This document shows positions 17,308 through 41,384 of a DNA stretch of 64,000 bases, one piece after another (within the stretch, counting starts at the first letter, position 1; every line of letters starts with the position of its first letter). The stretch is from assembly GCA_963820825.1 (NCBI GenBank), contig CAWGBN010000006.1, positions 480,001 to 544,000 on the forward strand. Reading direction: 5' to 3'. Position numbers and translations under genes: made by a program. The stretch comes from Vulcanimicrobiota bacterium. Lineage in GTDB: Bacteria; Vulcanimicrobiota; Vulcanimicrobiia; Vulcanimicrobiales; Vulcanimicrobiaceae. The notes beneath the pieces were generated by a model, which saw nothing but the letters and a program-made list of their open reading frames with translations, searched no databases and was not told where the DNA came from.

Positions 17308-17341
17308 TGCAATAAGCGAAGATAACCCTTACTATGGGCGC

Positions 17342-22352: not shown

Positions 22353-22436
22353 GAATACCGCCGACGAAGAGCAGCTTCAAACGGCTGCGGATTCCGGTAG
22401 AAGGCTCATCTGCCGAACGTCGGTAAAGAGAGGGGC

Positions 22437-23558
22437 ATGAACTCGCGTATAGTCGTAGCGGTTGCTGCATTCTCCGCCATTCTTGCTGGGTGCTCCGGCC
22501 CGTCGCAATCAAATCTCACTCCGGGGGGCGCACAGAGCGATGCTGGCTTCCGAGCGAAGACCTACACGTACGTCGATCTCGGCCCCGGACCAAATGGGAA
22601 GGATGCGTACGGTTACGGTGAGAGTCCCAGCGCGCAGGCCGGCGCGTACTTCGATCACACGATCTCGTGCGGCAAGGCTTGCTCTGCCAAGGTCTACTAC
22701 CCGCTCGCGTGGTCGGGATCCGGCTCGAGTCCGGTCGTGCTCTTGCCCCAACTCTATGTCGAAGGTTGGGCCTACGGCGCCGGCGGCTCGTCGATCGTCG
22801 GGACCCTCATCACCAATGACGGCGGCTACTTCGGATTTAACCACGCCGCGTTGTGGCAGGGTGCCTCGCATACTTTCACCGACCTCAACCCCGCCGGCAG
22901 TTGCGGAAGCTGTTCGCCGGGATCGAACGCGTACGGCACCAATGGAACGTATATCGTCGGGTCCGGCGGATCGCCGGAACACGCGCTCCTATGGAAGCTC
23001 ACGCAGTTGAAAACGCCGATCGATCTGAATCCGGCCGGCTTTGCATACTCCGAAGCGTACGTGGTGCGCGGCACCGCGCAGGCGGGCTACGCCTACTCGA
23101 GCACGACCTATTCCAACCACGCCGTTCTTTGGCACGGCACCGCCGCGAGTGCGGTCGATCTTACGCCGTCGACTTTGTCGAGCGCCTACGCAACCGGCTT
23201 GGGGCACTTGAGCGAGGTCGGTTGCGGCACGCCCGCCGGAATGTCGGTGAACCACGCGCTTTTGTGGCACGGCACTGCCGCGAGCATGGTCGACCTCCAT
23301 CCCGCAGGCTTTGTCGATTCCTGCGCTCGCGCCGCCCAGGGGAACGTGGAGGTGGGGTACGGACACATCAGCGGCACGGTGCTGCATGCGTTACTCTGGA
23401 GAGGCAGCGCGAAGAGCGCGGTCGACCTCCAGCAGTATTTGCCCGCGAGCACGTTCACGAGTTCGCAGGCATATGCGATCGACACGGGCGGCGACATCCT
23501 CGGCTCCGCATACTCGACGAGCACGCACTCGTGGCACGCGGTGATATGGGTCCCCTGA
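22437..23558 (+). CDS. Lipoprotein with HAF-like extracellular repeats
   Basis: ILAGCSG lipobox; about six repeats of HA(L/V)LWxGxxxSxVDL. Confidence 0.8.
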   Translation: MNSRIVVAVAAFSAILAGCSGPSQSNLTPGGAQSDAGFRAKTYTYVDLGPGPNGKDAYGYGESPSAQAGAYFDHTISCGKACSAKVYYPLAWSGSGSSPVVLLPQLYVEGWAYGAGGSSIVGTLITNDGGYFGFNHAALWQGASHTFTDLNPAGSCGSCSPGSNAYGTNGTYIVGSGGSPEHALLWKLTQLKTPIDLNPAGFAYSEAYVVRGTAQAGYAYSSTTYSNHAVLWHGTAASAVDLTPSTLSSAYATGLGHLSEVGCGTPAGMSVNHALLWHGTAASMVDLHPAGFVDSCARAAQGNVEVGYGHISGTVLHALLWRGSAKSAVDLQQYLPASTFTSSQAYAIDTGGDILGSAYSTSTHSWHAVIWVP

Positions 23559-23605: not shown

Positions 23606-24640
23606 TTAGGTCGTCACCGCGACCGCCGGATCGGCCCAGAGGTTCGTGGTTTCCCGAACCACGCGAGCCTCGTCGTGATTCAGATAGCGTGCGGCGCCAC
23701 CTTCCACATATCGCTCGATGCGTGCGACGACCTCGGCCGGGGCAATCATGTCCATGCAGTGCGGCAAGTGGTTCACGACGTCGACGCAGCGCGATCCCGG
23801 TTCGTCCTTGGCGTCACCGTCGCCTAAGCGCTCGGTACGTGCCTTCCAGCACCCGCCGTTATCGCAGCACAGCAGCGAGCCCACCGTGTGGATGAATTGG
23901 TGGTGCGGATAGGCTTCCCAATGCGGCGGTTCGCGCCCACCCGCTACGACGACGCAGGCGCGATTCTTCGGTACTCCGCCCTTGACCTCAACGGCAGCGG
24001 CGAGATGCATGTGCAGCGTTACCGGAGAGAGTACGCCCTGGGCATGATAGGTAAGGCGAAGGAGCTGGCGCAGATCGGTGCGTCCGACGAGATCGATAAC
24101 GCCGCGCAGGTTGGGATGGTAGTGCCGTTCTAGGCCGACCTGGACGAAGAGCACGCGCCCGCGAAGTGCGTCGACGACCGCTTGAAAGCGTTCGTGCGAC
24201 CACCACTTTATGGTGAAGTCGCGCTTGCCGCCGGCGACGACGATCCAAAAGGGCAAGTCGATCCCGACGATCTCCCTGACCTGTGATATCCACGCCTTCT
24301 CGCGCGCTGCGAGGTGAATGTCGCCTTTGAACGCCGTCGTCGCGATGGATACTTCCAGCCGATCGGCGAGAAACGCCGTAAAGCCTTGCACGAAATGGTG
24401 GGGCCGCTGATTGCTGGCGTGGATCAGCGGATAGTGGCACTCGATCTGCTCGGCATCGGGATCGTCGTCGGCAATCGGCGTGACGTACGGGTTGTTCTCC
24501 CAGAGTGGGGCGCACGGGGTGCGTACGTCGGTCAGGAACGCTCCCGGATGGGCCAGATGCAGGTCGCGCACCGCCGCCGTGAGCATGACGATGTCGCCCG
24601 GCGACTGATGGTTTCGAAGGATAAGTTTGCGTGGCGTCAC
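23606..24640 (-). CDS. GT9-family (heptosyltransferase-like) glycosyltransferase
   Basis: GTG start overlapping upstream stop; SPGDIVMLTAAVRDL, LWENNPYV, IDLVGRTDLRQL, HLAAAV, Cys-rich C-terminus CCDNGGCW..C..CMDMIAPAEV. Confidence 0.8.
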   Translation of the reverse strand: MTPRKLILRNHQSPGDIVMLTAAVRDLHLAHPGAFLTDVRTPCAPLWENNPYVTPIADDDPDAEQIECHYPLIHASNQRPHHFVQGFTAFLADRLEVSIATTAFKGDIHLAAREKAWISQVREIVGIDLPFWIVVAGGKRDFTIKWWSHERFQAVVDALRGRVLFVQVGLERHYHPNLRGVIDLVGRTDLRQLLRLTYHAQGVLSPVTLHMHLAAAVEVKGGVPKNRACVVVAGGREPPHWEAYPHHQFIHTVGSLLCCDNGGCWKARTERLGDGDAKDEPGSRCVDVVNHLPHCMDMIAPAEVVARIERYVEGGAARYLNHDEARVVRETTNLWADPAVAVTT

Positions 24641-25749
24641 TGAAGCATTGCGAGTGCCTGTGCGAGATTCCCCTGACCGAGAATGCCGTCGTGTGCCACG
24701 TATGGTGATGGCGTAACGACCTGGTAGTTTGCCGCGAGCGCGTTGTACGGGTCGGCGCCCGAACCGCCGAGCGCGGCCGCGTTTCGGGAGAAAAACGATC
24801 GAATCGTTTGATTGATCGCCGCGTAGTTCGAAGCGTAAAAATCGTCCTGCGTGTTGTAAATGCCGCGGAAGCGGAAACTCGTTTTCAAATAGTTCGACTG
24901 ATCGTCCGCGCTCAGGCCCTGCAGGCTCTGCAGATCGGCGTTCAGCTTCGCGGTAACGTAGGCGGTATTGGCGGCGAGCTCGTTGGAACCGTTGATGGCC
25001 TCGAAGAGAAAGAGTGCCGCCATCGGACTGGGCAGTCGCTGCTGACCGGATTCCGACTCCATCACCGCAATCGATCCTCCGCCGCCGCTGTGCGCGGAGA
25101 GGATTACGCGTGAGATGCTCGGTGCGCTCGACCACACCCCTGCCGAAACGGCCGCGTCGAGGACCTCCGCGATAAAGGCATTGCTGTTAAACGGCGCGCT
25201 TCCGCTAAAGCCCGATAGCAGCGTTCCCTGCGGCAGGATGGCGATCATCGGCCGCCCGGAGCTCACCACTTGGTCTTCGATCTGATCCACCAGAACGTCG
25301 CGCACGGTACCCGCATCCGGAAGTGTCGAGGCGACGCGCTGGCGGTACCCGATATTGTGCCCGTGCAGGTGCAGGAGCACTTCCACACCGTTACTCGCGT
25401 CCAGCGTACTAGGAACGCACAAGATGGCGCGGCCGGTCGCCGATTCGGTCGTCGCCGGATCGGGCGCCGCCGATTGATTGACGTTAGTAAGCCCTTGCAG
25501 GGGAATTCGGCGGACATTGCTCACGGCACGTTCGCCGCTATTCCATCCATCGGCGACCGCGTCACTCCATCCGCCGATTACGGTCTGACTCGATGCTCCA
25601 TCGCTCGAATCGCCGTCGCTCGATCCGCCGTCGCTCGAAGCGCTGTCAGTCGATGCCGCATCGCTCGACGAATCGTCGGCCGCAGAGCTGTCGCTGCTCG
25701 TGGTATCTGATGAGTCACCGTTCGTTGAGCTGTCGTCGTCGAATGTCAT
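24637..25749 (-). CDS. Alpha/beta-hydrolase-fold protein with Asp/Ser-rich N-terminus
   Basis: Start MTFDDDSS (ATGA overlap); LHLHGH, nucleophile motif AHSGGG, FLFEA, late His (VAHD). Confidence 0.7.
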   Translation of the reverse strand: MTFDDDSSTNGDSSDTTSSDSSAADDSSSDAASTDSASSDGGSSDGDSSDGASSQTVIGGWSDAVADGWNSGERAVSNVRRIPLQGLTNVNQSAAPDPATTESATGRAILCVPSTLDASNGVEVLLHLHGHNIGYRQRVASTLPDAGTVRDVLVDQIEDQVVSSGRPMIAILPQGTLLSGFSGSAPFNSNAFIAEVLDAAVSAGVWSSAPSISRVILSAHSGGGGSIAVMESESGQQRLPSPMAALFLFEAINGSNELAANTAYVTAKLNADLQSLQGLSADDQSNYLKTSFRFRGIYNTQDDFYASNYAAINQTIRSFFSRNAAALGGSGADPYNALAANYQVVTPSPYVAHDGILGQGNLAQALAMLQ

Positions 25750-26600
25750 GGTATCGTCCCATTTGCCTTCCATTGCGAGATGAGCTCGTTTGAGGCTTCG
25801 AAGTGCATGCCGTCGGGCGTCGGGTTGAAGCCCGCTCCCCAGAAGAAACTCTCGGCGGCCATGAACGGCGCGAGATCGACGAGTCCCTGCGTGACGGTCG
25901 TCGAGCCGCGCTGCGTGAGCACTCCGCCGATCGTCATATCGATAGCCGTTCCCCAAGAGTGATTCGAGAAGTTGGTCGTGGAGCCGCGCACGTACCGAAC
26001 GCAGAGCATGCCGGCGGTTCCGAGCGCGGCGTAAAGATCGGGCCGCGCGCTTTGCACCGCTGCAAACACGCGCGTCAGCGCATCCACCGCCGGCGATAAG
26101 CCCGTCACGCGGAACGGACCGACGCTGGCCGTCTTCATTAAACTTTGCAATGCCGGCGCCACCGGGCCGCACCCGGGGTCGGGGGTGCCGGGGTTTCCAA
26201 GCGCCGTCAGCATCGTCGCTTGCGAAGCCGAACTCAGGTTGGCGTTGATTCCGCTGGGAATCGGCACGGTTGCGGTGAGGTCGACGCTTGACGAGGTGCT
26301 GGAGGTGCCGGCGTCTGACGAGCCACCGTCCGAGGTGCCGGCGTCCGACGTGCCGGCGTCTGACGAGCCACCGTCCGACGTGCCGGCGTCCGACGTGCCG
26401 GCGTCCGACGTGCCGGCGTCCGAGGTGCCACCATCCGACGCGCTCACCGTTGACGCGTCGTCGCTGGTCGCGCCGTCGCTGGATGCGCCGGCGTCACTGG
26501 AGTCACTGGAATCACTGGAGTCATTACCGTTGCTACCGTTGCCGCCGTCGAACGTGCTGTCCGTTGAGGCGTCGTCGCTGGAGTCGTCTTGGTATGTCAT
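25746..26600 (-). CDS. M15-family Zn peptidoglycan peptidase with Asp/Ser-rich N-terminus
   Basis: R..RG....SNHSWGTAID and DGMHFE motifs of VanY/M15-type peptidases. Confidence 0.85.
   Translation of the reverse strand: MTYQDDSSDDASTDSTFDGGNGSNGNDSSDSSDSSDAGASSDGATSDDASTVSASDGGTSDAGTSDAGTSDAGTSDGGSSDAGTSDAGTSDGGSSDAGTSSTSSSVDLTATVPIPSGINANLSSASQATMLTALGNPGTPDPGCGPVAPALQSLMKTASVGPFRVTGLSPAVDALTRVFAAVQSARPDLYAALGTAGMLCVRYVRGSTTNFSNHSWGTAIDMTIGGVLTQRGSTTVTQGLVDLAPFMAAESFFWGAGFNPTPDGMHFEASNELISQWKANGTIP
26307..26441 (-). repeat. Nine 15-bp tandem repeats encoding (T/S/A)SD(A/G)G
   Basis: Units such as GCCGGCGTCCGACGT on +; protein ASDGG TSDAG TSDAG TSDAG TSDGG SSDAG TSDAG TSDGG SSDAG. Confidence 0.9.
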
Positions 26601-26725
26601 TGCTTGATACTCCGTCGGTTACGTGCGATGTCGCGCTAGGCTCGGGGGCACTCCCTTTTCGGCAGCGACCTCGGCCTGCACTGCTCTTTGGGGATTCTCG
26701 GAAGGCTCGGGCTATGCGCGAATGC

Positions 26726-27235
26726 CTATGGAGCGTGCGAGCGCTGTACGTCGGTATGATAGAGAGCGAGCGTGCCGGCGCCGTAGTGATTCGTGCTATG
26801 CGGGTCGGGGTCGTTCCCCGCCGCTACGCTCTTGTGCACCGTGCCGAATCCGGCATTGTAGGCGATGAACGCAAAGTATAAAATCTCGCTGTTGATGCCG
26901 TTCATGGTCGAGCCGTAACGTTCGCGCAGGAGTAAGCACTCCTTGATTGCCGGAGCGAGAAAGTATTTTGCCCCGACCTCGAGGTTGCTCGCAGGGTCGA
27001 GCATGTTCTGTCCGGTTGCCGTGTAGATGCCGTTGGCGTCGACGCCGTAGGTAATTTGCGCGAGACCCCATCCGCCATCACCACTGCGAGCATCTTTATT
27101 CCCGCCGCTCTCGCGCTCGACGATTGCGGCCAGGGCGCACGGCGGTACGCTCGAGGCGTTGGCGTACTGGTTGACGAGCGCCGCCCACTGGTTGATCGCG
27201 GCGTTTGAGGGATCGCGGTAAGCAACGAAATCCAT
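26726..27235 (-). CDS. SLT-domain lytic transglycosylase
   Basis: Start MDFVAYR after GAGG; AAIVERESGG, GLAQI, NLEVGAKY, AYNAGFG; no signal peptide. Confidence 0.85.
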   Translation of the reverse strand: MDFVAYRDPSNAAINQWAALVNQYANASSVPPCALAAIVERESGGNKDARSGDGGWGLAQITYGVDANGIYTATGQNMLDPASNLEVGAKYFLAPAIKECLLLRERYGSTMNGINSEILYFAFIAYNAGFGTVHKSVAAGNDPDPHSTNHYGAGTLALYHTDVQRSHAP

Positions 27236-27245
27236 AACCTCTTCC

Positions 27246-28160
27246 CTATGGCGATGAGTGCATGTCGTGAGTGGCCGCAAGCGCGGCGGTGACCGTTGCG
27301 GTCGTGAAGATTCGGCGGTCGTCGGCAACGACCGGACTGGTCCGGCAACGGCGATCGTTCCAGCGTTTCGAAGACGGATCGACGACGCGCAGGATCGGCG
27401 ACGACGGCCAGCTGCCGTCGCGAAGCTGAAGCTTGCCCAAGGCGCGAGGCGCCCTCTCGTCGCGGCGGCGCTGCGTCCCATCACGCAAGCGCGCGATGTC
27501 GAGTGCGAGCGCCCGCTCCACGCAGCTTGCGTCCGCTGCCGGGTTCAGCCGCGGAATAGTAAATGCCGGCGCGCCGGGAACGTCGCGCGAGAGCACGAGC
27601 AACTCTCGAGCGAGATAGAGCGCAGACGGCCACCAATACGACGCGGTCTGTTCGCGACGTGCGAGGAAACCCGCGAGCCGAGCGTAACCGCGGCGCATGA
27701 TGACGTGGCCCGACGACAGGAGGCCCGCCATCGCACGCAGCGCGACCGCGGTGACGTCGGGATGGCCGCGGCACCAGCCGCCGCGCGCGTCGCCGGGTGC
27801 ATAGGTCGCAAAGGCGCCGTCGCGCAACTGAAAGCGCGCCAACACCGCATAGTCCCGCAATGCCGGTCTGGCTCCAGCCTGTCGTAAGAACAGAATTGCG
27901 TGCGCCGTCGAGTCGGCATCGGGCGGGCAGTTGCCGTTGTAACCCCAGCCCCCGCGCTCGTGGCGCGACGATTGAATGAAGCGTACGGCCGCCGCCCGGG
28001 CTCGCACGACCCTCGGACCTGGCCAAGCCCCTGCGGCTTGCAGCAAGCGCAGACCGACGTACGCCGTTACCCACGAATCGGAGCGGCCCGGCTTTAAGAG
28101 GAAGTCGCGCCAGGCACCGTCCTCGCTCTGCTGCGCGAGCAGGAACTCGATCGCGGTCAC
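27246..28160 (-). CDS. Prenyltransferase/squalene-cyclase (QW repeat) fold protein
   Basis: QQSEDGAW, GGWGYN..PPDADSTA, QLRDGAF, QLRDGSWP. Confidence 0.75.
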   Translation of the reverse strand: MTAIEFLLAQQSEDGAWRDFLLKPGRSDSWVTAYVGLRLLQAAGAWPGPRVVRARAAAVRFIQSSRHERGGWGYNGNCPPDADSTAHAILFLRQAGARPALRDYAVLARFQLRDGAFATYAPGDARGGWCRGHPDVTAVALRAMAGLLSSGHVIMRRGYARLAGFLARREQTASYWWPSALYLARELLVLSRDVPGAPAFTIPRLNPAADASCVERALALDIARLRDGTQRRRDERAPRALGKLQLRDGSWPSSPILRVVDPSSKRWNDRRCRTSPVVADDRRIFTTATVTAALAATHDMHSSP

Positions 28161-29113
28161 GGTTGCAGCAACGCAAGCGCGCTGATTCCGACGCGCAATT
28201 CGGGTTCGTCTTCGGAACGCTCGACGATGCTCACGATCTCGTGATCGGGTAGACGCTCGTCGGGCACGCCGTCGAGCAGATCGCGGTATGCACCGTGCGA
28301 ACGCCCCGCTCGCGACTGCGCGGCGAGAAAACTCTTTCGAATATGTGCGACGCTACGCAGCGAGCGCGAGCGTACGAACATGGCGAACGCCGCATCGGCT
28401 CCGGGCGTAAGGCTATATCCGAAGTTGACCCAGTTCGTGGCGCTGCGTGCGGGTAAGCCGGAGAGCGCTGCGAAGGCGTCGAGCACCGCCCGCCGGCCGG
28501 GAGCCGCGGCGAGGTAGGCGTAAAACGTTGCGTTTGCGCGTTCGTCCATCGCCGGTTGCCGGAAGTAATACTCCTCCGAGCCACGCAGGCAATCGTATCC
28601 GATCATCATCGCGCGGCTGCTCGGCACGATTTGCCATACGTTCGGCTCGCCGCGCTCGCGTAATACACGCGGAACCTCGATGTACAGCTTCACGCGGACC
28701 GAACTGCCGGCGTGACGGACGCCGATCCATGCGCCCCACCGCAGCGCTCCCGCGGATTGCATGCGCTCCCACGCGCTTCGCCTTTCAGCGGGTACGGCTG
28801 CTCCCAACCGCTCGGCCAACTCGCACGCGGCGCGCAGCCGAAGCCGCTCTTCGACCTCAGGACCGGCGACTTCGGCGGCATAGCGCAGCGCGTCGTCGCG
28901 CGTCGAGAAATCGAATTGCAGAGGACTTCCATCGGTGCTCAACCTGCTGAAGCGCCAGGCGACGCCCGACCACGGCGAACCGGCGAACGCGTCGATGCAA
29001 ATGCGAAGCGTCTCGAGGGCGCCTTCGCGCTCGCCGCTGCGCAGCCGATTGCCGATGCGGGCTGCGACGGCGAGCACGTGTGCCGTTCGTTCGTCGCTCT
29101 CGCAGGCGAGCAT
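28157..29113 (-). CDS. Putative ABBA/DMATS-like aromatic prenyltransferase
   Basis: WRFSRLSTDGSPLQFDFS, LRYAAE, WIG..VKLY resemble DMATS-type motifs. It appears as the tail of ORF 28157..31399 only because of an upstream frameshift. Confidence 0.45.
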   Translation of the reverse strand: MLACESDERTAHVLAVAARIGNRLRSGEREGALETLRICIDAFAGSPWSGVAWRFSRLSTDGSPLQFDFSTRDDALRYAAEVAGPEVEERLRLRAACELAERLGAAVPAERRSAWERMQSAGALRWGAWIGVRHAGSSVRVKLYIEVPRVLRERGEPNVWQIVPSSRAMMIGYDCLRGSEEYYFRQPAMDERANATFYAYLAAAPGRRAVLDAFAALSGLPARSATNWVNFGYSLTPGADAAFAMFVRSRSLRSVAHIRKSFLAAQSRAGRSHGAYRDLLDGVPDERLPDHEIVSIVERSEDEPELRVGISALALLQP

Positions 29114-29121
29114 CGGCGAGG

Positions 29122-31399
29122 CTAAGAGCCCGCGCCGACCAACACGAGCGGATCGCTGGCCGTCACGTAACTTCCGGCCGTCTGCTGGTTGTTCGTTCCC
29201 AGGAGCGTAACGCGATACTGGTATTGATTCTGGGTGCGATCCATTACCGGAACGTGCAACGGTACCGGTGTGCCCGGCGCGGCGATCTCGAGGGTCTTCT
29301 GAAAGCTGTAGTTGTTGGCGGAGTCCTGATATACGGAATTCGACGACGGCGAGCTTGACCTGCGAGGCATCGAAGACCGGTTGGAACGTCAGGTCGAGGG
29401 CACCGGCGAACGGATCGCTCACCACGATCGCGCTGGCCGTCGACGAGACGCTCGGACCGGCGATCGTGGTTCCATCTTTCAGGTAACAATTGGTCGAGTA
29501 CGAGTACGCGTTGTCGGTCTTATCGGCCAGACGAAGCTTCCAACTCTGCGGTGGTGATCCGGGGCGGACGACGATGGTCTGCGCGGCTTTCCATCCGCTC
29601 TTCGCGGTGTATTGCAGCGGAACTTCGATGCGATCGACGACGTTGGGATCGATTCGGCCCGGCGCGATCGTGAGCGAGAGAAATCCGAGGAAATCGTACG
29701 GATCGAGAGTCAGCAGCCGGTTCTCGGTGGTGACCGCGGGGAGTGCGTACTCCAACTGCTCGCCCAGCCAACCCGATTCCGGATCGAACGCGTAATCGGC
29801 GGTATACGTGAACGACGTCGAATTAATCAACCCTTGATAGACGTCCCAGACCTGCTGCAGCTGGTGCGTTGCGTCGAAAACGAATTCGCCGTGCTTGGCC
29901 GGAACCGTCGTCGACGATGGGTCGCCGTAATCGAGCGCGACGTGTGCGGAGGCGAGGCCGATGCCGGCAAAGTCGCGCGGCGGATTGATCGTGACCGAGA
30001 ACTGATTGAAGAACGGATCGTTGCCGCTGACCTTGAGGAAGTGCTTGCTCTGATCGATGCCTTGCAGCAGAAGTCCGAAATACCCCTGGGGTGAGAACGT
30101 GCGCTGCACGGCGCTCATCTGTTTGTATTCGATTTCGACCGTTTTCAGCTCGTCTTGCGAGACGTATTTGAGCCGCAGCGAGAGACCGAACGGCGATGCC
30201 GCCGACGAGGCGCCGGCCGCCGTGCCTGCCGCTTTGGCGATTTGGTTGGCAACCGCACCCGCACCGCCGCTTGGGGCAGCCGATGGCTTGGCGCCGCCGG
30301 CCGCCGCGCTCGAAGCGCTCGGAGGTCTGGCCGCCGATGACGCGGTCGACGATGAGGCGCTCGACGATCCGGCATGCGGCGCCGATGCGCCACTCGAGGA
30401 CATCGAGCTCGACGACGAAGGACCGCCCATCGTCGGGTGCGAGGCGCTGGGGCTCTGCATCGAACTCGACGAATGCGCCGCACTCGAGCTTGCGGATCCG
30501 CCGGGCTGCGTCATGCCACCCGCGGGCGCCGTGCCGCCTGGACGCGCGGGAATGTTGACCGTCGACGCGTCGGCTGCCGCCGCAGTCGTCGGGCTGAGGC
30601 TCGGCGAGAACCACTGCGACATGATTTGGTCTTTGAAGAGATTGAGCGCCCACTGCTCTTGTTGCTCGGTCGAGGCGTCGGCGCTTAGGCTAATGACCTC
30701 GATGTTGATCACGCCGTCTTGACGCAACTTTTCGAAGGTAGCGTCGATACCGGCCGACGCCCAGTACGCCGACGCCGTCAAATCGACGCTGAATGAACTG
30801 TACGCCCGCTTCAGATCGGCGGTGATTTTGACGTCCAGCGCCGGTAAGACGCCGGTAAACTTCAGGTTGTAGATACCGCCGACGGGCGTCATTCCGTCTT
30901 GAAAGGCCTGTTCGAGAATCGTGGCGCCTTCCTCGCTGAGCGTGAGCGCGAAGACCGCGTCGTTGTTTCCGAACAACTCGGGATTGCTCGCGCCGAGAAT
31001 GTTCTCGACCGCGCTGCCCGTACCGGGAGCCGCGGAGGTCCCGCCGCTTCCCTGCAAGTTGAGCGCGACGACCTGCACCGTCCCATCGTCGAACGGTACC
31101 GGGGCGAGCCTCGGCTCCGAAACGTTCGGAAACTGCGTTCGGATTTGACCGACGATCTTCGATTGCGTGTCGTCGCTGACTTTGAGCGCCAACGTCACGT
31201 TCAAAAACCCCGTTCCTTTGATGCCGGCCGATGCGACGTCGGGCTCGTACATGATCAGCAGGAACTGCGGCTCGCTGCTGTCCGCCTCCGACTCTAGCCC
31301 GACGGGGCTCGGAAGATACCAAAACTGGTTCGGATCGGCATGGTCGGGGAAGACCGTGACGCCGTCGACCGTGAAGGTGCCGCTTGAAAACAGGAGCAT
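29122..31399 (-). CDS. Large unknown protein, paralog A (frameshift near 29335)
   Basis: GVTVFPDHADPNQFWYLP N-domain, EGATILEQAF, Ser/Ala-rich insert, beta-rich repeats. Its natural C-terminus (YQDSANNYSFQKT..LVGAGS) is in ORF 29122..29370. Confidence 0.75.
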
Positions 31400-31415
31400 G
31401 CGCAGAAACCTCGCC

Positions 31416-33767: not shown

Positions 33768-33788
33768 TGCGTTCGCAGTCGCTTTCGT

Positions 33789-36071
33789 TTACGACGGCGT
33801 GCTTACGGGCGGCGTGCTCGCCGGCGGATTGAGCACGAGGTCCGTGTCGGTGCTGCTCGCGGGAGCCTGTTTGATGACCGCCGGTGGATTCGTGGCCATG
33901 TAGTAGGTGGCGGTATAGGTGTAGGCCACCTTGGTGGGATCCTTGGTGTAGAACGTCCACGACGGGGGCGTCGCGCCGGTCGATTTTAGTACGATCTCCT
34001 GCTGCAGCGCGATGTTGTTGGCCGGATCCGAATACTGGAACTCGATCTGTACCAGTTTGATCTGCGTAAAATCGAGCAGTGCGGTGTCGGGAGTGACCGT
34101 AACGATCGTCTGGTCCGGCGGACCGAAGGTGACGAGCGTGCCGGTCGCGGGCGTGTCGGGAATATTCTCCTGCGTCTGATTCTTGTACGAGACCACGCCG
34201 CTGTAACTCACTTGTCCGTTTGCGGCGGGGATCATCAAGAACGTCCAGTCGTGCGTGCGGTTGGCTGCGCTGAACTGGTACTCGCTGCTTTGCGTGTACT
34301 TGTTCGTCGCGTCCGTATACGTCATCCGCAGGAAGATGTTGTCGATCGAGTTTGCAAAGTCGCCTTCGCTGATGAACGTGACCGTCTTCGGAATGAAGAT
34401 GTTGTTGATAAACAACTGCTGTGTGTTGTCTTGTTTCGGCGCGGTCACTACTTGCGTGCCGTCGGTCAAGACGTAGGTCACCGTGTACGTATACTGCTTG
34501 TCCACCGGCTTGAGTATAACGACCACGAGCGTTGCGGTGCGCGTGTTCTGATCGAATGCGAATTCTCTGCTGATCGCGGCTCCCGACGGATCGGTGTCGG
34601 GGTATTGCAGCGCGACTTGTACCTGCTTCACCGTCGTCCAATCCACGTTGCTGACGGTCAGGTTGACGTACAGCACGCCCATCGTGCCGACGTCGAGCGT
34701 GGTGACCTGATTCTGAGTGGTGTAGACCGGTGAAGCGTAGGCCTTGCTTTGATCCGCGTAGTTGACGTTGAACTGATACTGGTAATGCATATCGCCGCTG
34801 ACGGTATCGGAATCGAATTTAAGCACGTCGTCGGGCTTCTTGAAGGTGAACCCGGCAACGGTCGGCGGATTGCTCTTGGTGTACTGGCAGTTCACGTCCA
34901 CGCTGACGATGTTGAACGTTTGGAAATCCGCATTGCACTGCATCGTCGCGTGAATTTGCGCAAAGAATGGATCGTTGGCGTTGATCGTCTCGGCGTACTG
35001 CTCGAAGTTGGCGACGTTGGGCAGCGTGCCTTGCTGCACCGTCTCGTAGGCGATGCTGTCGCGTTCGTTGTAATGCTCGTAGAAGCTAAACGAGGCGAAG
35101 CTCGTTTCGTCGCGCGACACGTGCTCCATTCCGTCGTCGCCGCGGTTTTGGCCGAGGTCGCTGCCGACGCTGCTGCCCGTCACGCCGGCGCCGCTGCTCG
35201 ACGAGCTCGAGCCGTCGCCGCTGGTCCCGCCTGAGCTGCTGGTCGCGTTCGAGGCGGCCATCACGCTTTGTACCGCGGTGTTGAGCTGCTGCCAACCCCA
35301 GTTCACGAGATCGTCGTGCAGTTTTTGAACGGTCGAGTCTCCGGTCGGCAAGCCGGTGAAATCGAAGCTCACGCCGCCGCAGTCGGCGCTGACGAAGGCT
35401 TCGCGCATCTTCTCCTGCTCGGTGTTGTCGCCGCTGTCCCAACTGCCGCCGCTCTTGTCGATCGTTTGATGGAACGAGGCGAACTTCACCGCGTCGAACC
35501 AAACCGTTCCCGTAACCGGCGGCAGTGCGGCGGTATAGGTCAGATCGTAGGCGATCTGAACGACCCCGCCCTTGCCTTGCATGGCTCCCTCGACCACGGC
35601 GGCACCCTCGGGCGAGAGCTCGGCGGTGAACGAGCAGATCATCGAACCGAGCAGCGACGGCTTTCCGGCGCTCTCGATCTTCGTCACGAGCGCGCCGCCG
35701 CTGTCCAGCAGCGTTAGCGCTGCCGTCCCCTTGGTGAAGCTCGGCATCGAGATTTCCGCGCTGACGGGGTTGCCTTGAGCGTCTTTGATTCCGCGCGACT
35801 GGACGAGCTTGTCGAGCTCTTGCTGCGCGGCTTTCATTTGATCCGGCGGTATGACGAAGACCGAGTCGAAGATCAAGAAACCCCCGCCTTTGCTCCCGTC
35901 GGGCCGGTCGACCGGCATCAAATACTTGATGAAGTTCAAGACCGGTTTATTCGTCTTGGGATCGATGCGGAAACCCGGCTCACTCGGCATTGCATAGAAG
36001 ACCGCCGGGCGCGAGTCGTCTTCGTAGATGGTGAGGCCGGCGATCAGATGGGCGGGATATAGGCTCAGCAT
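33789..36071 (-). CDS. Large unknown protein, paralog C
   Basis: 760 aa; GLTIYEDDSRPAVFYAMP, GGGFLIFD, KPSLLG, EGAAVVEGAM, NDPFF then beta repeats. Confidence 0.85.
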   Translation of the reverse strand: MLSLYPAHLIAGLTIYEDDSRPAVFYAMPSEPGFRIDPKTNKPVLNFIKYLMPVDRPDGSKGGGFLIFDSVFVIPPDQMKAAQQELDKLVQSRGIKDAQGNPVSAEISMPSFTKGTAALTLLDSGGALVTKIESAGKPSLLGSMICSFTAELSPEGAAVVEGAMQGKGGVVQIAYDLTYTAALPPVTGTVWFDAVKFASFHQTIDKSGGSWDSGDNTEQEKMREAFVSADCGGVSFDFTGLPTGDSTVQKLHDDLVNWGWQQLNTAVQSVMAASNATSSSGGTSGDGSSSSSSGAGVTGSSVGSDLGQNRGDDGMEHVSRDETSFASFSFYEHYNERDSIAYETVQQGTLPNVANFEQYAETINANDPFFAQIHATMQCNADFQTFNIVSVDVNCQYTKSNPPTVAGFTFKKPDDVLKFDSDTVSGDMHYQYQFNVNYADQSKAYASPVYTTQNQVTTLDVGTMGVLYVNLTVSNVDWTTVKQVQVALQYPDTDPSGAAISREFAFDQNTRTATLVVVILKPVDKQYTYTVTYVLTDGTQVVTAPKQDNTQQLFINNIFIPKTVTFISEGDFANSIDNIFLRMTYTDATNKYTQSSEYQFSAANRTHDWTFLMIPAANGQVSYSGVVSYKNQTQENIPDTPATGTLVTFGPPDQTIVTVTPDTALLDFTQIKLVQIEFQYSDPANNIALQQEIVLKSTGATPPSWTFYTKDPTKVAYTYTATYYMATNPPAVIKQAPASSTDTDLVLNPPASTPPVSTPS

Positions 36072-36092
36072 GGCTCTCTCCTTATGTCCGTA

Positions 36093-37955
36093 TCATGGTG
36101 TTGTCGCGGGAACGGGCGTAAGCGCCGGCTGGGCGCTCGCGGCACTGGCCGATACCGGCGTACCGTCGGCAGCTAGCATCAGCGGTGTGAAAGGTGACTG
36201 CAGCGCCGACCACGCTCCGGCCGGCGCACTCCCCGTCGCCGACTTTCTATAACGGTAGCCGGCTTTGAATGGTGACGAGGCGACGTAGCCCCAGTCGGCG
36301 GATGGTTGGTCCGCGGTTAGCAGCAGTTGCGCGGGAGGCGCGCCGGCGTCTTCATCGTCCTGCGCGATCGCATCGAGCATCAACGCACGATCGCCGCTGC
36401 GCAGTGCCGCGCGAATCGTTACCCGGTGCGGTCCGAACTCGGCAAATGCAGGAAGATCGAGGTCGATGCGCCCTGGTGCGAGCGGCCCGAGCCCCAGCGG
36501 TGCACTTCCGTCGAGCGGCGCGGCGCTCACCGTCAGCGACGGGTCGCTTGCACTGCGCGGCACGGCCATCGAAGCGCCGGTGATCTTTGCGTTGAGAACG
36601 GCCGCAACCCGATGCTGCGCGCCATCGAGTGCATACGTCAGCGTCAGCGTCAGAACGGCAAGCGAGAGCAAGCGGTTCGCGGCGGTCACGTGCGCGAACG
36701 CGACCGGGAAGTCGTCGGCCCCGAGCTGCACCCACGACGAGCTGCGTAGTTGGGGCGGCATCGCGAACTCGCGCACCATTCCCGCGGCGGCAAGCACCGC
36801 AAATCCCGATAGCGTATACGACAGCGTCTCCGCGGGACTGATTTGAAACGTAAGGGAACCGTCGTCATCGGGTTCCGTAAACGCGATCGTCTGCGCGATG
36901 CTGCTCGGTCGAAGCGGTGGATTCGCCGCGACGTTTGCGGTGACGCCGATCGCCGGTACGCCGATGCGGTTCGGCGGCAGATTCGCGTCGACGTCGACCT
37001 TACAGAGTCCCACCTGTAATGCGGGAACGCTGACGTTGCGCACGAGCGCCGCCGTGCCGTTGCGTGCGGCGAATGCGCGCAGCACCGTCAAAATGTCGAG
37101 CATCAGCACCCATTGCCGCCGGCCGATCGCCGGTTGGCTCAAATCCCACTGCACGGCTCCCAACGGCAGCGCTGAGGGGTCGGCGAATGCGACGAAGGAT
37201 GGGTCGGAGCTCGCCGGAGCCGGCGCGCGCGACGCGTACGATGCCAAGATCCGATCGGCGACCGCCGCCGCGAAATCGCCCGTCGTCGCGTCGCCTGCAA
37301 GAATTTTCAGCGGAAACTTTTCCGGCGTGCCCGTAAATGCGGCCAGTACGTCCGGGGCCGAGAGCAGACGTCCCGTCGTGCCCGCGAGCAACGAAGCGAC
37401 GAGCTTCTCCGGCTCGAACGCAACCGTCGTCTCTACCCGGGCGGCAACGCCGAGGGCGTCGAATTCCACCCGTGCACCGAGAAGCAGCGAGCCGCCGGCG
37501 ATCGCGCCTTTGATGAGCTCGCCGGCGTCGGCCGAGAGGCGCGTCGTCCAGCGCGCAAAATCGGCCCCGCTAAAGCCGAGAGGAATCGGCGCGAGCGCGT
37601 CGCTCGATGGTGCGACCTCGCCGGCGGTCGGATAGAGACGTGCAAAACCTCCCGCGGCTGCGATCGGCGTCACCGTCGCGGCGGCGTCGAGCGGCCGAAC
37701 CACGGCGAGCGCGGTATCGAGCTCGAAGTCGCCCGCGAGCGAAAAATCGAGCACCGCATACTGACCGGCCGCGCTGAAATCGCCGGCGCGTTCGACCAGA
37801 TCGAGGGTAAACTTTGGGCTCGCGTCGGCATCGAGCGCGAGCGAGAGCTGTTGCGGCACGACCGCGTAACTTCCGTTTTGGAATGGCGCAAACGCAGTGA
37901 CGCCGGCGGTCGAAATCGGCGCCGAGAAGTCCGGCAAGCCCGAAAACGCGCTCAT
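36093..37955 (-). CDS. Large unknown protein, divergent paralog D
   Basis: Start MSAFSGLPDF (TGATG overlap); GVTAF..YAVVP..PKFTL..LDFSL and LSADAGELIKGAI echo the A-C N-domain; beta-rich C-terminus ending W....GYRYR. Confidence 0.7.
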   Translation of the reverse strand: MSAFSGLPDFSAPISTAGVTAFAPFQNGSYAVVPQQLSLALDADASPKFTLDLVERAGDFSAAGQYAVLDFSLAGDFELDTALAVVRPLDAAATVTPIAAAGGFARLYPTAGEVAPSSDALAPIPLGFSGADFARWTTRLSADAGELIKGAIAGGSLLLGARVEFDALGVAARVETTVAFEPEKLVASLLAGTTGRLLSAPDVLAAFTGTPEKFPLKILAGDATTGDFAAAVADRILASYASRAPAPASSDPSFVAFADPSALPLGAVQWDLSQPAIGRRQWVLMLDILTVLRAFAARNGTAALVRNVSVPALQVGLCKVDVDANLPPNRIGVPAIGVTANVAANPPLRPSSIAQTIAFTEPDDDGSLTFQISPAETLSYTLSGFAVLAAAGMVREFAMPPQLRSSSWVQLGADDFPVAFAHVTAANRLLSLAVLTLTLTYALDGAQHRVAAVLNAKITGASMAVPRSASDPSLTVSAAPLDGSAPLGLGPLAPGRIDLDLPAFAEFGPHRVTIRAALRSGDRALMLDAIAQDDEDAGAPPAQLLLTADQPSADWGYVASSPFKAGYRYRKSATGSAPAGAWSALQSPFTPLMLAADGTPVSASAASAQPALTPVPATTP

Positions 37956-40075
37956 CAGCCGCTCGTCTGCACGTAAAAGGAGTCCGCGTTCGACGAGGTC
38001 CACTGACCCTGCGTTGTGCCGGTCGCGCTTACGAGATCGACGTGATAGCGATAGTAGGACGTATCCCCGGTCCCGACGACGTACGCCTTGATTGGGACGG
38101 CGAGCGCGACCGTCTGCGTCATCAGCCCGGAAGCGTCGGCTTGCGTGGAGGAATCAAAATCGACGGTCTGGCCGCTGTCGAAGACGACTTGAACGGCTTT
38201 CGGCGGTGGCGTTGCGCCGGCCGGATCGGCCGCAAACATCGAGGCGAACGCCATGACTTTCACGGTGCGTTGTACCGGCCCAACGACCTGATTCGACATG
38301 ATGGCGTCCCAGAGTGCGCTAGGATCGGCCTTGACGCTGGTATGCCCGAAGTCGATCACGACGGTACAATCGCCGGCCGCGCTTTGACCCGCGTCGCCGC
38401 CGTGCGTCGCGAGTCCGACCGCTTCACCGAGCAGGTTCCCCAGATCGCCGGGATTCTGGGGAAGCATACGTATCTTGAGGGTTACGCCGTTGGTGCCGGT
38501 CGTGGCGCTCGCCGGTACGAGATCGACCGGCGGCGTCGGGGTCAGCGTCTGCCCGAGGTCCTGTACTTTGACCGTCGGTTTTCCGGAGACCGGATCGACC
38601 GGCCCTTTCATGATTGCTGCAGGCAGGCTGTCGACGTGCACGGGACTCTCGACCACGTTGGAAATCACGACGTCGAACTCGCTCTGCTCCGCGTCGAAGG
38701 TCGAATTGGCGGCGAGCACGCTGCCGGCGAAATCTCCCGCACGCAAGCTGAAATGAATCGACTCGGTGTCGGACCCGATCGTTACCGTCACGACGCCCGA
38801 AAAGAGTTGGCTGACCTCGTCGAAGAGCGCCGCGTATACTTGTTGCAACTGCGCGAGGGAGAGCGCGATCGAGCAGCTGATGCCGCCGGCGATGTCCACA
38901 ATGGCCGAGCTTTGCGCGACGAGCGCCGGTCCCGATCCATCGCTGGCGGGCAGAGTCAACTGCAACGCGGTGTTGCTCGCTTCGAAGAGATGCATTCCGG
39001 GCAGGACGCTCGCGCGTAGCTCGTTTTGCCACCACGCCGCCGCATTGGCGATTCGATCGGGATTCCAAATGGGGATGGCCAGAAACGAGAGCGTGAAGCG
39101 CATCGTGCCCGCGTCGCCGCCGGTTGCAGCGATCGTGATGTTGGGAGCGTGCGGAGCATCCTGCTGCCGGCTGATCTGGAACGTGTCCGGGAGATAATAG
39201 ACTTGGCTCGGCTGGCGCGCGTCTTGATAGTACGGATACGAGCGGTTGTCGTGCGCGTAGGGCACTTGCGTAACGTTCCACGTCGACTCCCCGCTGCCGA
39301 CGCTGCCGAGCAGCGAGAAGATGTTCTTGTCGAGCACGGGATCGAACGTGAATGGAATCGGGGCATCGATGGCCGTAACGCTCTCGCGGTAGAGCGTCTG
39401 CGCCGTACCCTCCGCCGCGGCAGTCGGAGCTGCGACCGGAAACGAACGCCGGACGATCAGCTGCGCCTGTGCCGATGGATCGGTCATCGCCCGGTAAATC
39501 GAGTCGCGGGCAGCCGGATCGGTGACGGTCAGCGAGAGCGTAAGGTTCGAGCCATCCGACGGTGTCGCGGTGAAATCCCAGTTGGCGGCGAGCCCCTGCA
39601 GATTCGCCGTCAGCAGATAGCGCGTCGTCGTCGGGTCGATCCGCAGAGCGCTGCTCACCAGCGATGGATCCGTAACGTCGGCCAATCCGACGGTGAGGAC
39701 GAACCCGTCGGTATTGGCCACGAACGAGACGTTGTAGCTCTGCGCGCCGCCGCTGCCGATCGTCGCGATCGCGTACTTGGCGAGAAAGTGCTTCTTCGTA
39801 GCATCGGCCGGATCTTCGAAGAGCGTGTCGGCTTTGGGCGTCGCATCCGGCGCGATCAGCGTCGGCAACGAAAAGTTCGAACGCGGAAGCGGGCGACCGA
39901 GCTGCCATCCGACGAAGGCAGGATTGCGCATGTAGAGCAGCGCCGGATTCGCCATGCTGCGCGTTGGAGAGTGAGCGACGGCAGTCGATACCACGACCGG
40001 TCGCGCGACGGTCGCTTGGGGGGCGGTCGAGGGCAACGTTCGGGATGCGCTGCCGTGGAGAGTCATGAATGCCAT
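37955..40075 (-). CDS. Large unknown protein, divergent paralog E
   Basis: 706 aa; internal YYQDARQPSQVYYLP motif shared with A-C; C-terminal YYRYHV..GQW repeat-like end. Confidence 0.75.
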   Translation of the reverse strand: MAFMTLHGSASRTLPSTAPQATVARPVVVSTAVAHSPTRSMANPALLYMRNPAFVGWQLGRPLPRSNFSLPTLIAPDATPKADTLFEDPADATKKHFLAKYAIATIGSGGAQSYNVSFVANTDGFVLTVGLADVTDPSLVSSALRIDPTTTRYLLTANLQGLAANWDFTATPSDGSNLTLSLTVTDPAARDSIYRAMTDPSAQAQLIVRRSFPVAAPTAAAEGTAQTLYRESVTAIDAPIPFTFDPVLDKNIFSLLGSVGSGESTWNVTQVPYAHDNRSYPYYQDARQPSQVYYLPDTFQISRQQDAPHAPNITIAATGGDAGTMRFTLSFLAIPIWNPDRIANAAAWWQNELRASVLPGMHLFEASNTALQLTLPASDGSGPALVAQSSAIVDIAGGISCSIALSLAQLQQVYAALFDEVSQLFSGVVTVTIGSDTESIHFSLRAGDFAGSVLAANSTFDAEQSEFDVVISNVVESPVHVDSLPAAIMKGPVDPVSGKPTVKVQDLGQTLTPTPPVDLVPASATTGTNGVTLKIRMLPQNPGDLGNLLGEAVGLATHGGDAGQSAAGDCTVVIDFGHTSVKADPSALWDAIMSNQVVGPVQRTVKVMAFASMFAADPAGATPPPKAVQVVFDSGQTVDFDSSTQADASGLMTQTVALAVPIKAYVVGTGDTSYYRYHVDLVSATGTTQGQWTSSNADSFYVQTSG

Positions 40076-40216
40076 GGACGGCCGCTAAACCTCGAAAACA
40101 GACCGGGGGCTACCAGATTACACTAACGGGCCATGCTTGCCAAGGCTGCGGTCGTTCGCCTTACCGAACGCGCTCGCTCGCTCGCTAAGGGTCCCGGCGG
40201 ACTTTAGTTCCGGCCG

Positions 40217-40570
40217 CTACCCGTGAATGCTGTAGAGTTGCTGCAGTTGGTACGGATTCGCCGTTTGGGTCGTATAGTTGACGTTGATCGTATCGTCGTA
40301 AACCACGGTGATTTTGTTTCCACGCGCTCCGTACTTCACGGTCTCAACCCAGGTTGCCGGATCGCCGCTGATCTGAACGGCGCTCTGCGAGATACTCTGC
40401 ACGGTTTGGGATACCTGAGTCTGGGTACCGCTCTGGCTCTGCCACGCCGGCACGAGATGCGGGAAGCCGCAGTAAAGGGTCCCCGAAGCGCCCTGGAACG
40501 AGAAGACGATCATCACGCCGTCGTCCCACTCAATGGTTACGCCGATCTGCGAGGCGGTCTGCTGGCTCAT
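40217..40570 (-). CDS. Small hypothetical protein upstream of the paralog cluster
   Basis: MSQQTASQ start after strong GGAGG; 117 aa, beta-rich, no signal peptide. Confidence 0.65.
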   Translation of the reverse strand: MSQQTASQIGVTIEWDDGVMIVFSFQGASGTLYCGFPHLVPAWQSQSGTQTQVSQTVQSISQSAVQISGDPATWVETVKYGARGNKITVVYDDTINVNYTTQTANPYQLQQLYSIHG

Positions 40571-40659
40571 ATCTCGACCTCCACAACATGCTGGTTTTCG
40601 AGCAGCATAGCCCACTCGATATCCCGCGAGCAAGCAGTTTTCGACAAAGGCGTACTTCC

Positions 40660-41373
40660 TTATTCTAGGGGTGCCGCTTGCTCAGAACTCGGAGTTTTCC
40701 GAAACCGCTCCCAAAGACCGACCAAACCGGTCGTGATGCTGACCACGATCCCAATAAGTCCAATGTTTGAGGAGATCGGTTCGGGCGGCGTGGGCACGAA
40801 AACGGGGATATCGACCTCGCGTGAGTCCACGACGTGTTGCTGACGGTCTAGGGCTTGCAGGACCATGGTGATCACATGGTTGCCGGGTTCGGTCGCCATC
40901 AAATTCCAGCGCCAAGGCGGAGCCGGAGGAGGTGCTTTTGCGCCGAGGCTGCACTCGGGCGCGAGCAGCGTTTGCCGCGTGCGCGCCGCGTCGCCAATTC
41001 TGTCAACGGTGAAGCCGGGTGCGTCGACGAGTACTTGATAGGCCACGATCGTGCTGCCGGAGCATCCGGTTCCCGTCGTCAGCGGTCGCAACGCCAGCGT
41101 AATCGTTTCGTACAGGGCAATCGACTCAGGGTCTTTGACGATATCCTGGGGCCCGTTGGGGAGCCACTTACTGCCGTCGATTTGGGTCGTAATATCGTTG
41201 AATGGCGGCTGCGTCAACGCGATCTCCACCGAGTTGAAGCGGTACGCCTTAGCCGCGAGCTGTATGTCCCGGTCGTAGAGCCACCAGCGCACCCCCACAA
41301 TGCCTGCCACGATCGCGGCGATCGCGGCGATCGCGAACCAGATGCGCGACGACGACCGCCGTGGAGAGACCAT
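40660..41373 (-). CDS. Hypothetical membrane protein
   Basis: N-terminal and C-terminal hydrophobic helices around a soluble beta domain. Confidence 0.6.
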   Translation of the reverse strand: MVSPRRSSSRIWFAIAAIAAIVAGIVGVRWWLYDRDIQLAAKAYRFNSVEIALTQPPFNDITTQIDGSKWLPNGPQDIVKDPESIALYETITLALRPLTTGTGCSGSTIVAYQVLVDAPGFTVDRIGDAARTRQTLLAPECSLGAKAPPPAPPWRWNLMATEPGNHVITMVLQALDRQQHVVDSREVDIPVFVPTPPEPISSNIGLIGIVVSITTGLVGLWERFRKTPSSEQAAPLE

Positions 41374-41384
41374 CGAACGATCCC

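Follow-up and report, generated by a model that had tools for sequence, protein, structure and literature searches.

A widespread gene cassette of giant paralogous proteins with prenyltransferase-like and cyclase-like partners, and its possible role at the cell envelope

Results

A conserved cassette within a 12-gene locus

We analysed a 64,000-nt stretch of DNA (hereafter the window) from a Vulcanimicrobiota bacterium (GenBank assembly GCA_963820825.1, contig CAWGBN010000006.1, positions 480,001 to 544,000), focusing on 12 open reading frames (ORFs), labelled A to L, that all lie on the minus strand at 23606-40570 (Table 1). Their core is a cassette of five large proteins (B to F) and a prenyltransferase-like protein (G), often followed by a cyclase-like gene (H in the window, or a divergent family, Z, at other loci). 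A first-pass annotation, made by a model from the letters alone, had described the whole run as a 17-kb operon of twelve co-oriented genes. The common orientation and the overlaps were confirmed from the ORF coordinates and the junction sequences (TGATG at 37955 for B/C, where the ATG of C and the stop of B have one base in common; GTGA at 28157-28160 for G/H; ATGA at 25746-25749 for J/K; GTGA at 24637-24640 for K/L), whereas the twelve genes did not hold up as a unit: because I to L are confined to close relatives and A to few loci, the conserved part is B to G plus H/Z. The core B-C-D-E-F-G spans 28157-40075, and its order is fixed across related loci. None of A to L contained a transmembrane-like stretch (highest 19-residue Kyte-Doolittle mean 1.68; no dedicated signal-peptide predictor was run). 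A scan of the window for promoters and terminators gave nothing above shuffles, and Rfam had no match within the window.

Table 1 Features of the 12-gene locus (window coordinates)
ORF	Coordinates	Strand	Description
A	40217-40570	-	117 aa counted from an internal ATG; lineage-specific neighbour, outside the core
B	37955-40075	-	706 aa; first core protein; own N-terminal region, then a region with the YYLP motif of the shared N-domain
C	36093-37955	-	620 aa; core; remote paralog of D/E/F (by profile comparison)
D	33789-36071	-	760 aa; core paralog; N-domain, linker and beta-rich repeats
E	31416-33767	-	783 aa; core paralog; N-domain 1-300, C-terminal repeats 400-783
F	29122-31399	-	~758 aa; core paralog; ~120-aa Ser/Ala/Pro-rich linker; frame disrupted
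G	28157-29113	-	318 aa; divergent DMATS-type (ABBA) aromatic prenyltransferase-like
H	27246-28160	-	304 aa; small class II terpene cyclase-like; DADSTA motif
I	26726-27238	-	SLT lytic transglycosylase without signal; lineage-specific accessory
J	25746-26600	-	M15_4 peptidase; ~110-aa acidic Ser/Asp/Gly-rich N-terminal extension; lineage-specific accessory
K	24637-25749	-	370 aa; no family match; acidic Ser/Asp-rich N-terminus; lineage-specific accessory
L	23606-24640	-	GT9-like glycosyltransferase; lineage-specific accessory or flank

A feature of F that was overlooked in the first-pass annotation is one extra base near 29331-29335, in a non-homopolymer context. The intact F proteins of L002, L004 and L007 (labels of this kind denote related loci, A to L the window ORFs and G000 the window genome) aligned by tblastn in one frame to ~residue 690, with their last ~67 residues in another. 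The extra base therefore puts the last ~70 codons of F in the other frame, and a long ORF (28157-31399, 1080 aa) runs F on into G. It is either a genuine mutation or an assembly error. Outside the locus, a PD-(D/E)XK nuclease gene and an rve-type transposase were located at window positions 18416-20828, 3-5 kb off the operon end, which fits a mobile or variable region.

Distribution and gene order of the cassette

The scan for relatives used one genome per species and returned 80 related loci from 12 named phyla (76 bacterial, two from Methanosarcinales bins and two unnamed); gene counts were obtained by tblastn with the window proteins, and only loci with enough flanking DNA were counted. D was found upstream of E in all 72 loci with at least 2.5 kb of upstream sequence, and F downstream of E in 60 of 60 loci. 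C was upstream in 58 of 62 loci and B in 55 of 62, or 59 of 62 when four Bacteroidota loci with a divergent 913-aa ortholog are included; the three loci still lacking B belong to Microbacterium and carry an extra D-like paralog instead. Of 51 loci with sufficient downstream sequence, 41 had G. In 42 of the 80 loci, though not in the window, a shorter paralog, X, sits between C and D, some loci hold a second F-like gene, and the large paralogs elsewhere number up to seven. Carriers span Eremiobacterota, Lysobacter, Paenibacillus, cyanobacteria, Bacteroidota and the Methanosarcinales bins, and cultured ones include Lysobacter enzymogenes (approximately GLE_0708 to GLE_0711), L. capsici, Paenibacillus, Cohnella, Larkinella arboricola and Hydrogenophaga taeniospiralis. 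The cassette proteins of Lysobacter and Paenibacillus are named hypothetical in both NCBI and UniProt.

At the level of single proteins, E had more than 215 homologs in a set of 5.8 billion proteins, of which the named ones are all ‘hypothetical’ and none has a Pfam match. A profile of the N-terminal domain common to the large proteins (N-domain; profile A3) matched 2,376 clusters (50% identity) among 1.84 billion proteins at E ≤ 0.001, with 1,624 passing E ≤ 1e-10, and every named member encountered is a ‘hypothetical protein’. In 146 of the 150 clusters listed, the alignment starts no later than residue 8 of the protein, and the remaining four of these 150 start at residues 18, 106 and 2 (the last with the back half of the profile only). 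Co-occurrence of the paralog set with its enzyme tail across phyla, a check named in the first-pass annotation, was borne out for the paralog set and G, while it failed for the tail of SLT, M15, K and GT9 genes. As the first-pass annotation had also held, the locus fits no recognised system: neither a confident full-length match to a characterised system nor homologs scattered singly without a conserved neighbourhood were seen, and searches of the openly accessible literature found no description of the cassette, including under the L. enzymogenes tags GLE_0708 to GLE_0713.

Relatedness and architecture of the large proteins

None of A to G had a match in Pfam, NCBIfam, PADLOC or PHROGs, in agreement with the earlier view that the large proteins belong to no known family. 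Profile searches of the PDB gave nothing significant for E (profile A1) or the N-domain (A3) and no match below E 0.33 for B (A7), and the ESM Atlas returned unnamed clusters only, with no usable named-cluster match for residues 1-310. Relatedness among the large proteins was therefore read from hhalign, a profile-profile comparison of ortholog alignments built from related loci. The pairs D-E, D-F and E-F reached a probability of 100% over their full length, X matched F at 99.5%, and C matched D at 96.8% (E 2.8e-10), E at 94.4% and F at 94.6% over most of its own length. B matched E at 37% over residues 283-377, which contain the YYLP motif, and F at 67% in the C-terminal repeat. By these comparisons D, E and F are clear paralogs and C is a remote one; the claim of five related large proteins stands for these four, while B has a motif-level match only.

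The N-domain is common to D, E, F, C and X. In E, it comprises ~290 residues with a low-complexity insert at ~113-152 and is followed by a linker and by C-terminal repeats of ~95 aa, of which R2, R3 and R4 are clearly homologous (hhalign 96-98%) and a fourth is weaker. The large subunits are predicted to be soluble, acidic and beta-rich. The overlaps at B/C, G/H, J/K and K/L together with the common N-domain suggest co-produced subunits, and fixed order, coupling, paralogy and the lack of signals and transmembrane segments point to a cytoplasmic multi-subunit complex.

Predicted fold of the N-domain

A first model of E residues 1-300, based on 28 sequences, was poor (predicted local distance difference test, pLDDT, 63.5; predicted template modelling score, pTM, 0.40), and its weak matches in VIA, among them the channel of anthrax protective antigen (PA; Z 4.9), iota Ib (Z 5.1) and CDTb (Z 4.8), were below the noise line of the tool. 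A second model of the same residues, made with AlphaFold2 (AF2) from a 150-sequence alignment, reached a pLDDT of 87.0 and a pTM of 0.77, with only the low-complexity insert below 70. It consists of ~12 strands, helices at residues 75-88 and 181-191 and a helical C-terminal part (221-232, 240-252 and 271-292). Mean-field direct coupling analysis of 482 N-domain sequences (Meff 276) yielded signals for helices and for ladders of antiparallel strands. A PA-like domain 2, which had come from the poor model (Z 4.8-5.1), was rejected as it faded to Z 3.5 with the confident model.

Foldseek, run with the second model against 350,542 PDB chains, found no match to a known PDB structure (none at E ≤ 0.001; best 0.021, with a query TM of at most 0.18). 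VIA-align against 48,161 representatives likewise gave no Z ≥ 5, and its best value of 4.4 is an unusually empty result, because even models that lack a clear match usually score Z 7-8 according to the note that accompanies the tool. Of the pore, filament or delivery particle put forward in the first-pass annotation, the search bore on the pore and named no known pore-former above noise. Judged against the PDB with the whole domain, the model is likely, though not proven, to represent a new fold. Model residues 3-102 weakly matched baseplate proteins of six contractile systems (Z 3.5-4.1), tied with C-terminal domains of acyl-CoA synthetases; we regard these baseplate echoes as a lead and not as a finding.

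Prenyltransferase-like and cyclase-like genes

As a single sequence G had no match, but a profile of 30 orthologs (A2) matched the PDB entries of a Trp dimethylallyltransferase (4yzj, E 9.4e-5) and of CymD (6os3, E 2.2e-4), with weaker matches to the dimethylallyltryptophan synthase (DMATS) entries 6zrz (E 0.13) and 7w8u (E 0.15). Pfam Trp_DMAT was weakly matched by 12 of the 30 members (best E 0.005), and G sits below the threshold of that family in an unannotated subfamily of its own. Its invariant or near-invariant columns include E65, R76, K141-x-Y143, Y182 and Y275, which may correspond to the catalytic Glu and the diphosphate-binding Arg, Lys and Tyr residues named for FgaPT2; in the alignment to 4yzj, E65 and R76 fall on its DG-P-E...R stretch. 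G is, as far as the profile tells, a divergent DMATS-type aromatic prenyltransferase.

H matched small single-domain class II cyclases of the PDB by phmmer (8pak, E 3.3e-19; 8paj, 7e-17; 6ij1, 2.2e-15; MstE, 6.5e-9). Small class II terpene cyclases carry the motif DxDDTA; in the DADSTA of H the fourth Asp of DxDD is replaced by Ser. Directly after G, orthologs of H were found in 6 loci and the divergent Z family (~270 residues) in 20 loci, with a Z consensus of LPDDADDTAIM that retains DxDDTA. H and Z aligned by hhalign at 91.7% with their motifs superposed, and the Z profile (A6) gave nothing significant against the PDB. Judging by these matches, H is small class II terpene cyclase-like. Of 48 loci with sufficient sequence, 25 had H or Z, and all 25 also had G. 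In L023 (Verrucomicrobia, 16023-17609) a single protein joins Z to a Bestrophin-like domain (PF14023) of a membrane-protein family; the fusion was seen in L023, and the Z part of the protein also occurs in L028 and L030. The conserved enzyme-like residues of G and the acid motif of the cyclase point to a dedicated lipid-chemistry pair, and the prenylation proposed in the first-pass annotation was strengthened by the frequency of G and of a cyclase-like gene next to it.

An alternative is that the product of G and H/Z is a small metabolite, a prenylated and cyclised aromatic compound (a meroterpenoid), with the large proteins serving as carriers, scaffolds, exporters or self-protection. The DMATS-like character of G, the resemblance of H to MstE-type meroterpenoid cyclases and the occurrence of H/Z only together with G are what this explanation would predict. 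However, no other biosynthetic gene (non-ribosomal peptide synthetase, polyketide synthase, polyprenyl synthase or tailoring enzyme) was conserved among the 80 loci, B to F are kept without G in 10 of 51 loci, and more than 10 kb of conserved paralogs are out of proportion for a two-enzyme pathway. We consider it very improbable.

Lineage-specific and accessory genes

The SLT, M15, cyclase-fold, DMATS-like and GT9 calls of the first-pass annotation were mostly right according to Pfam and to PDB sequence and profile matches, GT9 being marginal in the window. I matched Pfam SLT (E 8.9e-14) and PHROGs endolysin (E 3.7e-13) and was found outside the window only in L007, and J matched Pfam Peptidase_M15_4 (E 1e-9) and was otherwise seen only in L002 and L007; both enzymes look endolysin-like. 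K had been read as an alpha/beta hydrolase, for which we obtained no confirmation: it had no match in Pfam, NCBIfam or the PDB, its AHSGG motif resembles a nucleophile elbow by eye only, and its homologs were found only in L002 and L007. L scored 23.5 bits against Pfam Glyco_transf_9 (cut-off 22), with its L002 ortholog reaching 36.5 bits; a reading as a TibC-type protein heptosyltransferase was dropped, as there was no PDB match. Outside the window, I to L were confined to L002 and/or L007, and in L007 I, J and K lie upstream on the other strand. Because the GT9 gene is restricted to close relatives, the glycosylation step is lineage-specific.

J and K both start with an acidic, Ser/Asp/Gly/Thr-rich low-complexity stretch of ~90-110 residues (MT-F/Y-xDDSS...), which is kept in their L002 orthologs (16829-18708) and might act as a tether, as an inhibitory segment or as a tag for loading. 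Homologs of A were limited to L001 and L004, where they lie after G on the opposite strand, and L085. Although the loci are rearranged, A has remained close to the cassette in three genomes of Eremiobacterota and in L085. It belongs to no family (a match to the MliC lysozyme inhibitor at E 0.12 was not significant), and a relationship to X was rejected, as the two have no similarity.

Flanking genes at other loci were surveyed with Pfam for 78 ORFs from 18 of the 80 loci; all other counts come from tblastn with the seeds found there and miss families without a seed. Caspase-like Peptidase_C14 genes, frequently two in tandem, follow F in 18 of 80 loci, and HG...DSCHSGG is kept in 6 of 9 aligned sequences, the other three keeping the Cys with one neighbouring residue changed. 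Trypsin-like genes were found in 4 loci, subtilases in two (L008, just before B, and L013) and patatin-like lipases in three (L001, L004 and L008, in the last directly after F, the usual place of G). A PF11860 muramidase lies directly after G in L062 and before B in L036, neither N-terminus having a hydrophobic stretch on visual inspection (no signal-peptide predictor was applied), and an M15 dipeptidase was found in L018 and L029. Loci that lack G have two caspases (Bacteroidota), a patatin (L008) or nothing recognised (cyanobacteria, L053). Overall, hydrolases that attack wall, membrane or proteins and come from unrelated families are found repeatedly next to or within the cassette, and they are swappable between loci. 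The link to cell-wall lysis made in the first-pass annotation is supported by the unrelated muralytic families at loci of other phyla (PF11860 and M15), although it applies to a minority of loci.

Three further neighbourhoods were recorded. After the cassette of L036 (a Flavitalea bin), 17841-23075 encodes a fused SIR2-TIR protein and an nSTAND1 NTPase that carries an LCAT-like lipase domain and is defence-island-like, and a KAP NTPase lies nearby in L025. In L018 (Leptolyngbya), Baseplate_J, Tail_P2_I and DUF4159 genes at 15714-20210 directly follow the cassette in the usual place of G; these tail genes were rejected as part of the cassette, being present in no other of the 80 loci.

An alternative explanation of this repertoire is that the paralogs build a released toxin or delivery particle directed against other cells, with the hydrolases as its cargo or effectors and with exit by lysis of the producer, as for tailocins and Tc toxins. 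A multi-paralog structural set with swappable end enzymes resembles the cargo logic of contractile injection systems and of the type VI secretion system (T6SS), and the enzyme after F does vary by locus (prenyltransferase plus cyclase, two caspases, or a patatin). The conserved, disordered acidic extensions of J and K could act as loading tags, and both the repeated weak baseplate matches of residues 3-102 and the tail genes after the L018 cassette would fit. On the other hand, the baseplate matches are at noise level and shared with acyl-CoA synthetases, the tail genes occur in 1 of 80 loci, and G is too conserved for swappable cargo; neither Pfam nor PHROGs yielded a sheath, tube, ATPase, secretion signal or holin, immunity genes were not identified either, and no relative was found in viral contigs. 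We regard such a particle as possible, if somewhat unlikely.

Phyletic pattern

Among 201 sampled genomes of the phylum of the window, 8 had a match (G000 included), all of them in one genus, and within that genus 7 of 44 other genomes matched, 4 of these 7 holding one distant homolog only. Same-genus genomes lacking the full cassette carry a two-gene variant (L084, 9220-13501; L085, 8781-14440), which pairs an N-domain-like protein (710-791 aa) with a 708-aa protein that carries the same ...WYLPD motif. In L085 the variant is flanked by a homolog of A on one side and a truncated remnant of L (GT9) on the other, next to PLD-like and DUF900 hydrolase genes. A FastTree phylogeny of 75 E sequences, in which support values are local and long branches were flagged, grouped the window with other Eremiobacterota (labelled Vulcanimicrobiota) and then with Acidobacteriaceae and Alphaproteobacteria. 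The archaeal bins stood beside cyanobacteria, the Acidobacteriota needed at least 5 label changes, and phyla were mixed.

No relative was found in viral contigs. With the first, low-confidence N-domain model, Foldseek against BFVD matched an uncharacterised protein of Medusavirus stheno (A0A7S7YF07; E 9.5e-5, probability 1.00, TMq 0.37). A phage origin was rejected, as the viral contigs yielded no relative; the lone BFVD match came from a poor model.

The distribution also bears on a further alternative, in which the cassette would give healthy cells a stable structure inside the cell or associated with the envelope (a scaffold, cage, filament or lipid-binding body, for example) and the hydrolases would be unrelated neighbours. 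Soluble, acidic, beta-rich subunits would suit such a structure, strict order and coupling suggest a fixed stoichiometry, and ~50 of the 80 loci have neither a protease nor a lysin in the flanks examined. We nevertheless find this distinctly unlikely, as the cassette is patchy even inside one genus, the mixing of phyla in the tree is easier to reconcile with an accessory or conflict role than with a housekeeping architecture, and the association with hydrolases recurs with unrelated enzyme families.

Discussion

Overall, we propose that the cassette encodes a prenyl-lipid-assisted, hetero-oligomeric complex that would breach the cell envelope from inside the producer, a tentative reading to which we assign a probability of roughly 0.3. 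The unit would be a horizontally mobile cassette of B, C, in some loci X, D, E and F in fixed order, then G and often H/Z, in which each paralog would combine a family-specific N-terminal domain of ~290 residues with a flexible linker and beta-rich repeats. The signal-less paralogs may assemble in the cytoplasm into one hetero-oligomeric complex, to which G with H/Z would supply or attach a prenyl-derived, possibly cyclised lipid that brings it to the membrane. Attack on the membrane would then breach the envelope of the producer itself, so that signal-less hydrolases could reach their substrates and the cell would be lysed or killed. An endolysin without a signal can reach the wall only through a lesion in the membrane, and bacterial gasdermin cell-death systems combine a pore-former with adjacent caspase-like or trypsin-like proteases. 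In the window the hydrolases so admitted to the wall would be the SLT enzyme and the M15 peptidase, and elsewhere the muramidase, patatin, caspase-like, trypsin-like and subtilisin-like enzymes would take their role.

Several observations weigh against an envelope-breaching complex. The confident N-domain model matches no pore-forming fold (Foldseek best E 0.021; VIA best Z 4.4; PA Z 3.5), and its insert loop is of low complexity and not amphipathic. No conserved sensor or NTPase was found at related loci, and PADLOC had no match. Muralytic genes are restricted to the window and 6 of 80 loci (L002, L007, L062, L036, L018 and L029), and proteases to ~24 of 80. We identified no lipidation site, and the paralogs have no conserved Trp in common; the product of G could instead be a small molecule. 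Five to seven giant paralogs would also be unusually costly for a suicide device.

Of the described systems, bacterial gasdermins are similar to the cassette in several respects: soluble, signal-less effector candidates with an N-terminal domain of ~250-290 residues, active-looking caspase-like genes (18 of 80 loci) as well as trypsin-like (4) and subtilase (2) genes adjoining related loci, a lipid-modifying enzyme, and a patchy, horizontally spread distribution. They differ in that gasdermin is one protein and the cassette has 5-7 paralogs, in that gasdermin has a short inhibitory peptide where the C-termini of the cassette proteins are long beta-repeats, and in that window positions 23606-41500 contain no protease gene that could serve as an adjacent activating protease. 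Lipidation of bacterial gasdermin is palmitoylation, whereas the lipid enzyme of the cassette is of the DMATS type. No gasdermin match was obtained in Pfam, PADLOC or the PDB fold search with the pLDDT-87 model (Z ≤ 4.4). A separate search with PF04598 found nothing in four carrier genomes and was dropped, because the PF04598 model detects bacterial gasdermins poorly.

By analogy, the complement membrane attack complex (C6, C7, C8 and C9) also consists of paralogs that have one core domain and varying numbers of small beta-rich modules, a pattern expected of a sequentially assembled hetero-oligomer. Unlike complement, the cassette proteins are predicted cytoplasmic products of a bacterial operon and have no MACPF signature or fold match; more generally, MACPF/CDC, aerolysin and anthrax-PA-type proteins had no Pfam match, and the fold scores for PA, iota Ib and CDTb were below the noise line of the tool. 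Tc toxin, tailocin and contractile injection loci with lysis cassettes (type 10 secretion) are alike in that large, signal-less structural proteins adjoin muralytic enzymes, in their variable end enzymes and in the very weak baseplate echoes of the N-domain. Searches for their components were negative: TcA/TcB/TcC or RHS/YD in the large proteins (Pfam and NCBIfam), sheath, tube, baseplate or AAA+ ATPase families of contractile injection systems, T6SS and phage tails in A to L (Pfam, PHROGs and NCBIfam), and, for holin-endolysin or type 10 systems, a holin, a spanin or any transmembrane-like stretch in A to L. The closest enzymatic parallels are DMATS enzymes (CymD, 6-DMATS) and small class II meroterpenoid cyclases (MstE, 8pak/8paj, 6ij1), to which G is related by profile and H by sequence with DxD(S/D)TA kept, but the context of G and H is one of giant paralogous proteins and not of a natural-product cluster.

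In its boldest form, which we consider quite improbable, the proposed envelope-breaching complex would be a new class of prokaryotic machine, spread by gene transfer over at least 12 phyla including archaea. A hetero-oligomer of 5-7 paralogs with a new fold would receive a polycyclic, hopanoid-like terpenoid anchor on an aromatic residue through a DMATS-type enzyme and a cyclase, and would open the membrane for swappable lytic effectors. To our knowledge, a polycyclic terpenoid anchor on an aromatic residue is a protein modification that has not been known so far.

Irrespective of this, a gene order conserved over a wide taxonomic range without any annotation marks a real gap in knowledge, and a confident N-domain model without a counterpart in the PDB suggests a new fold. 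The tie of a DMATS-type prenyltransferase and a class II cyclase to giant proteins may reflect a new protein lipidation or a new lipid-dependent machine, and the cultured, genetically tractable carriers make this question directly testable.

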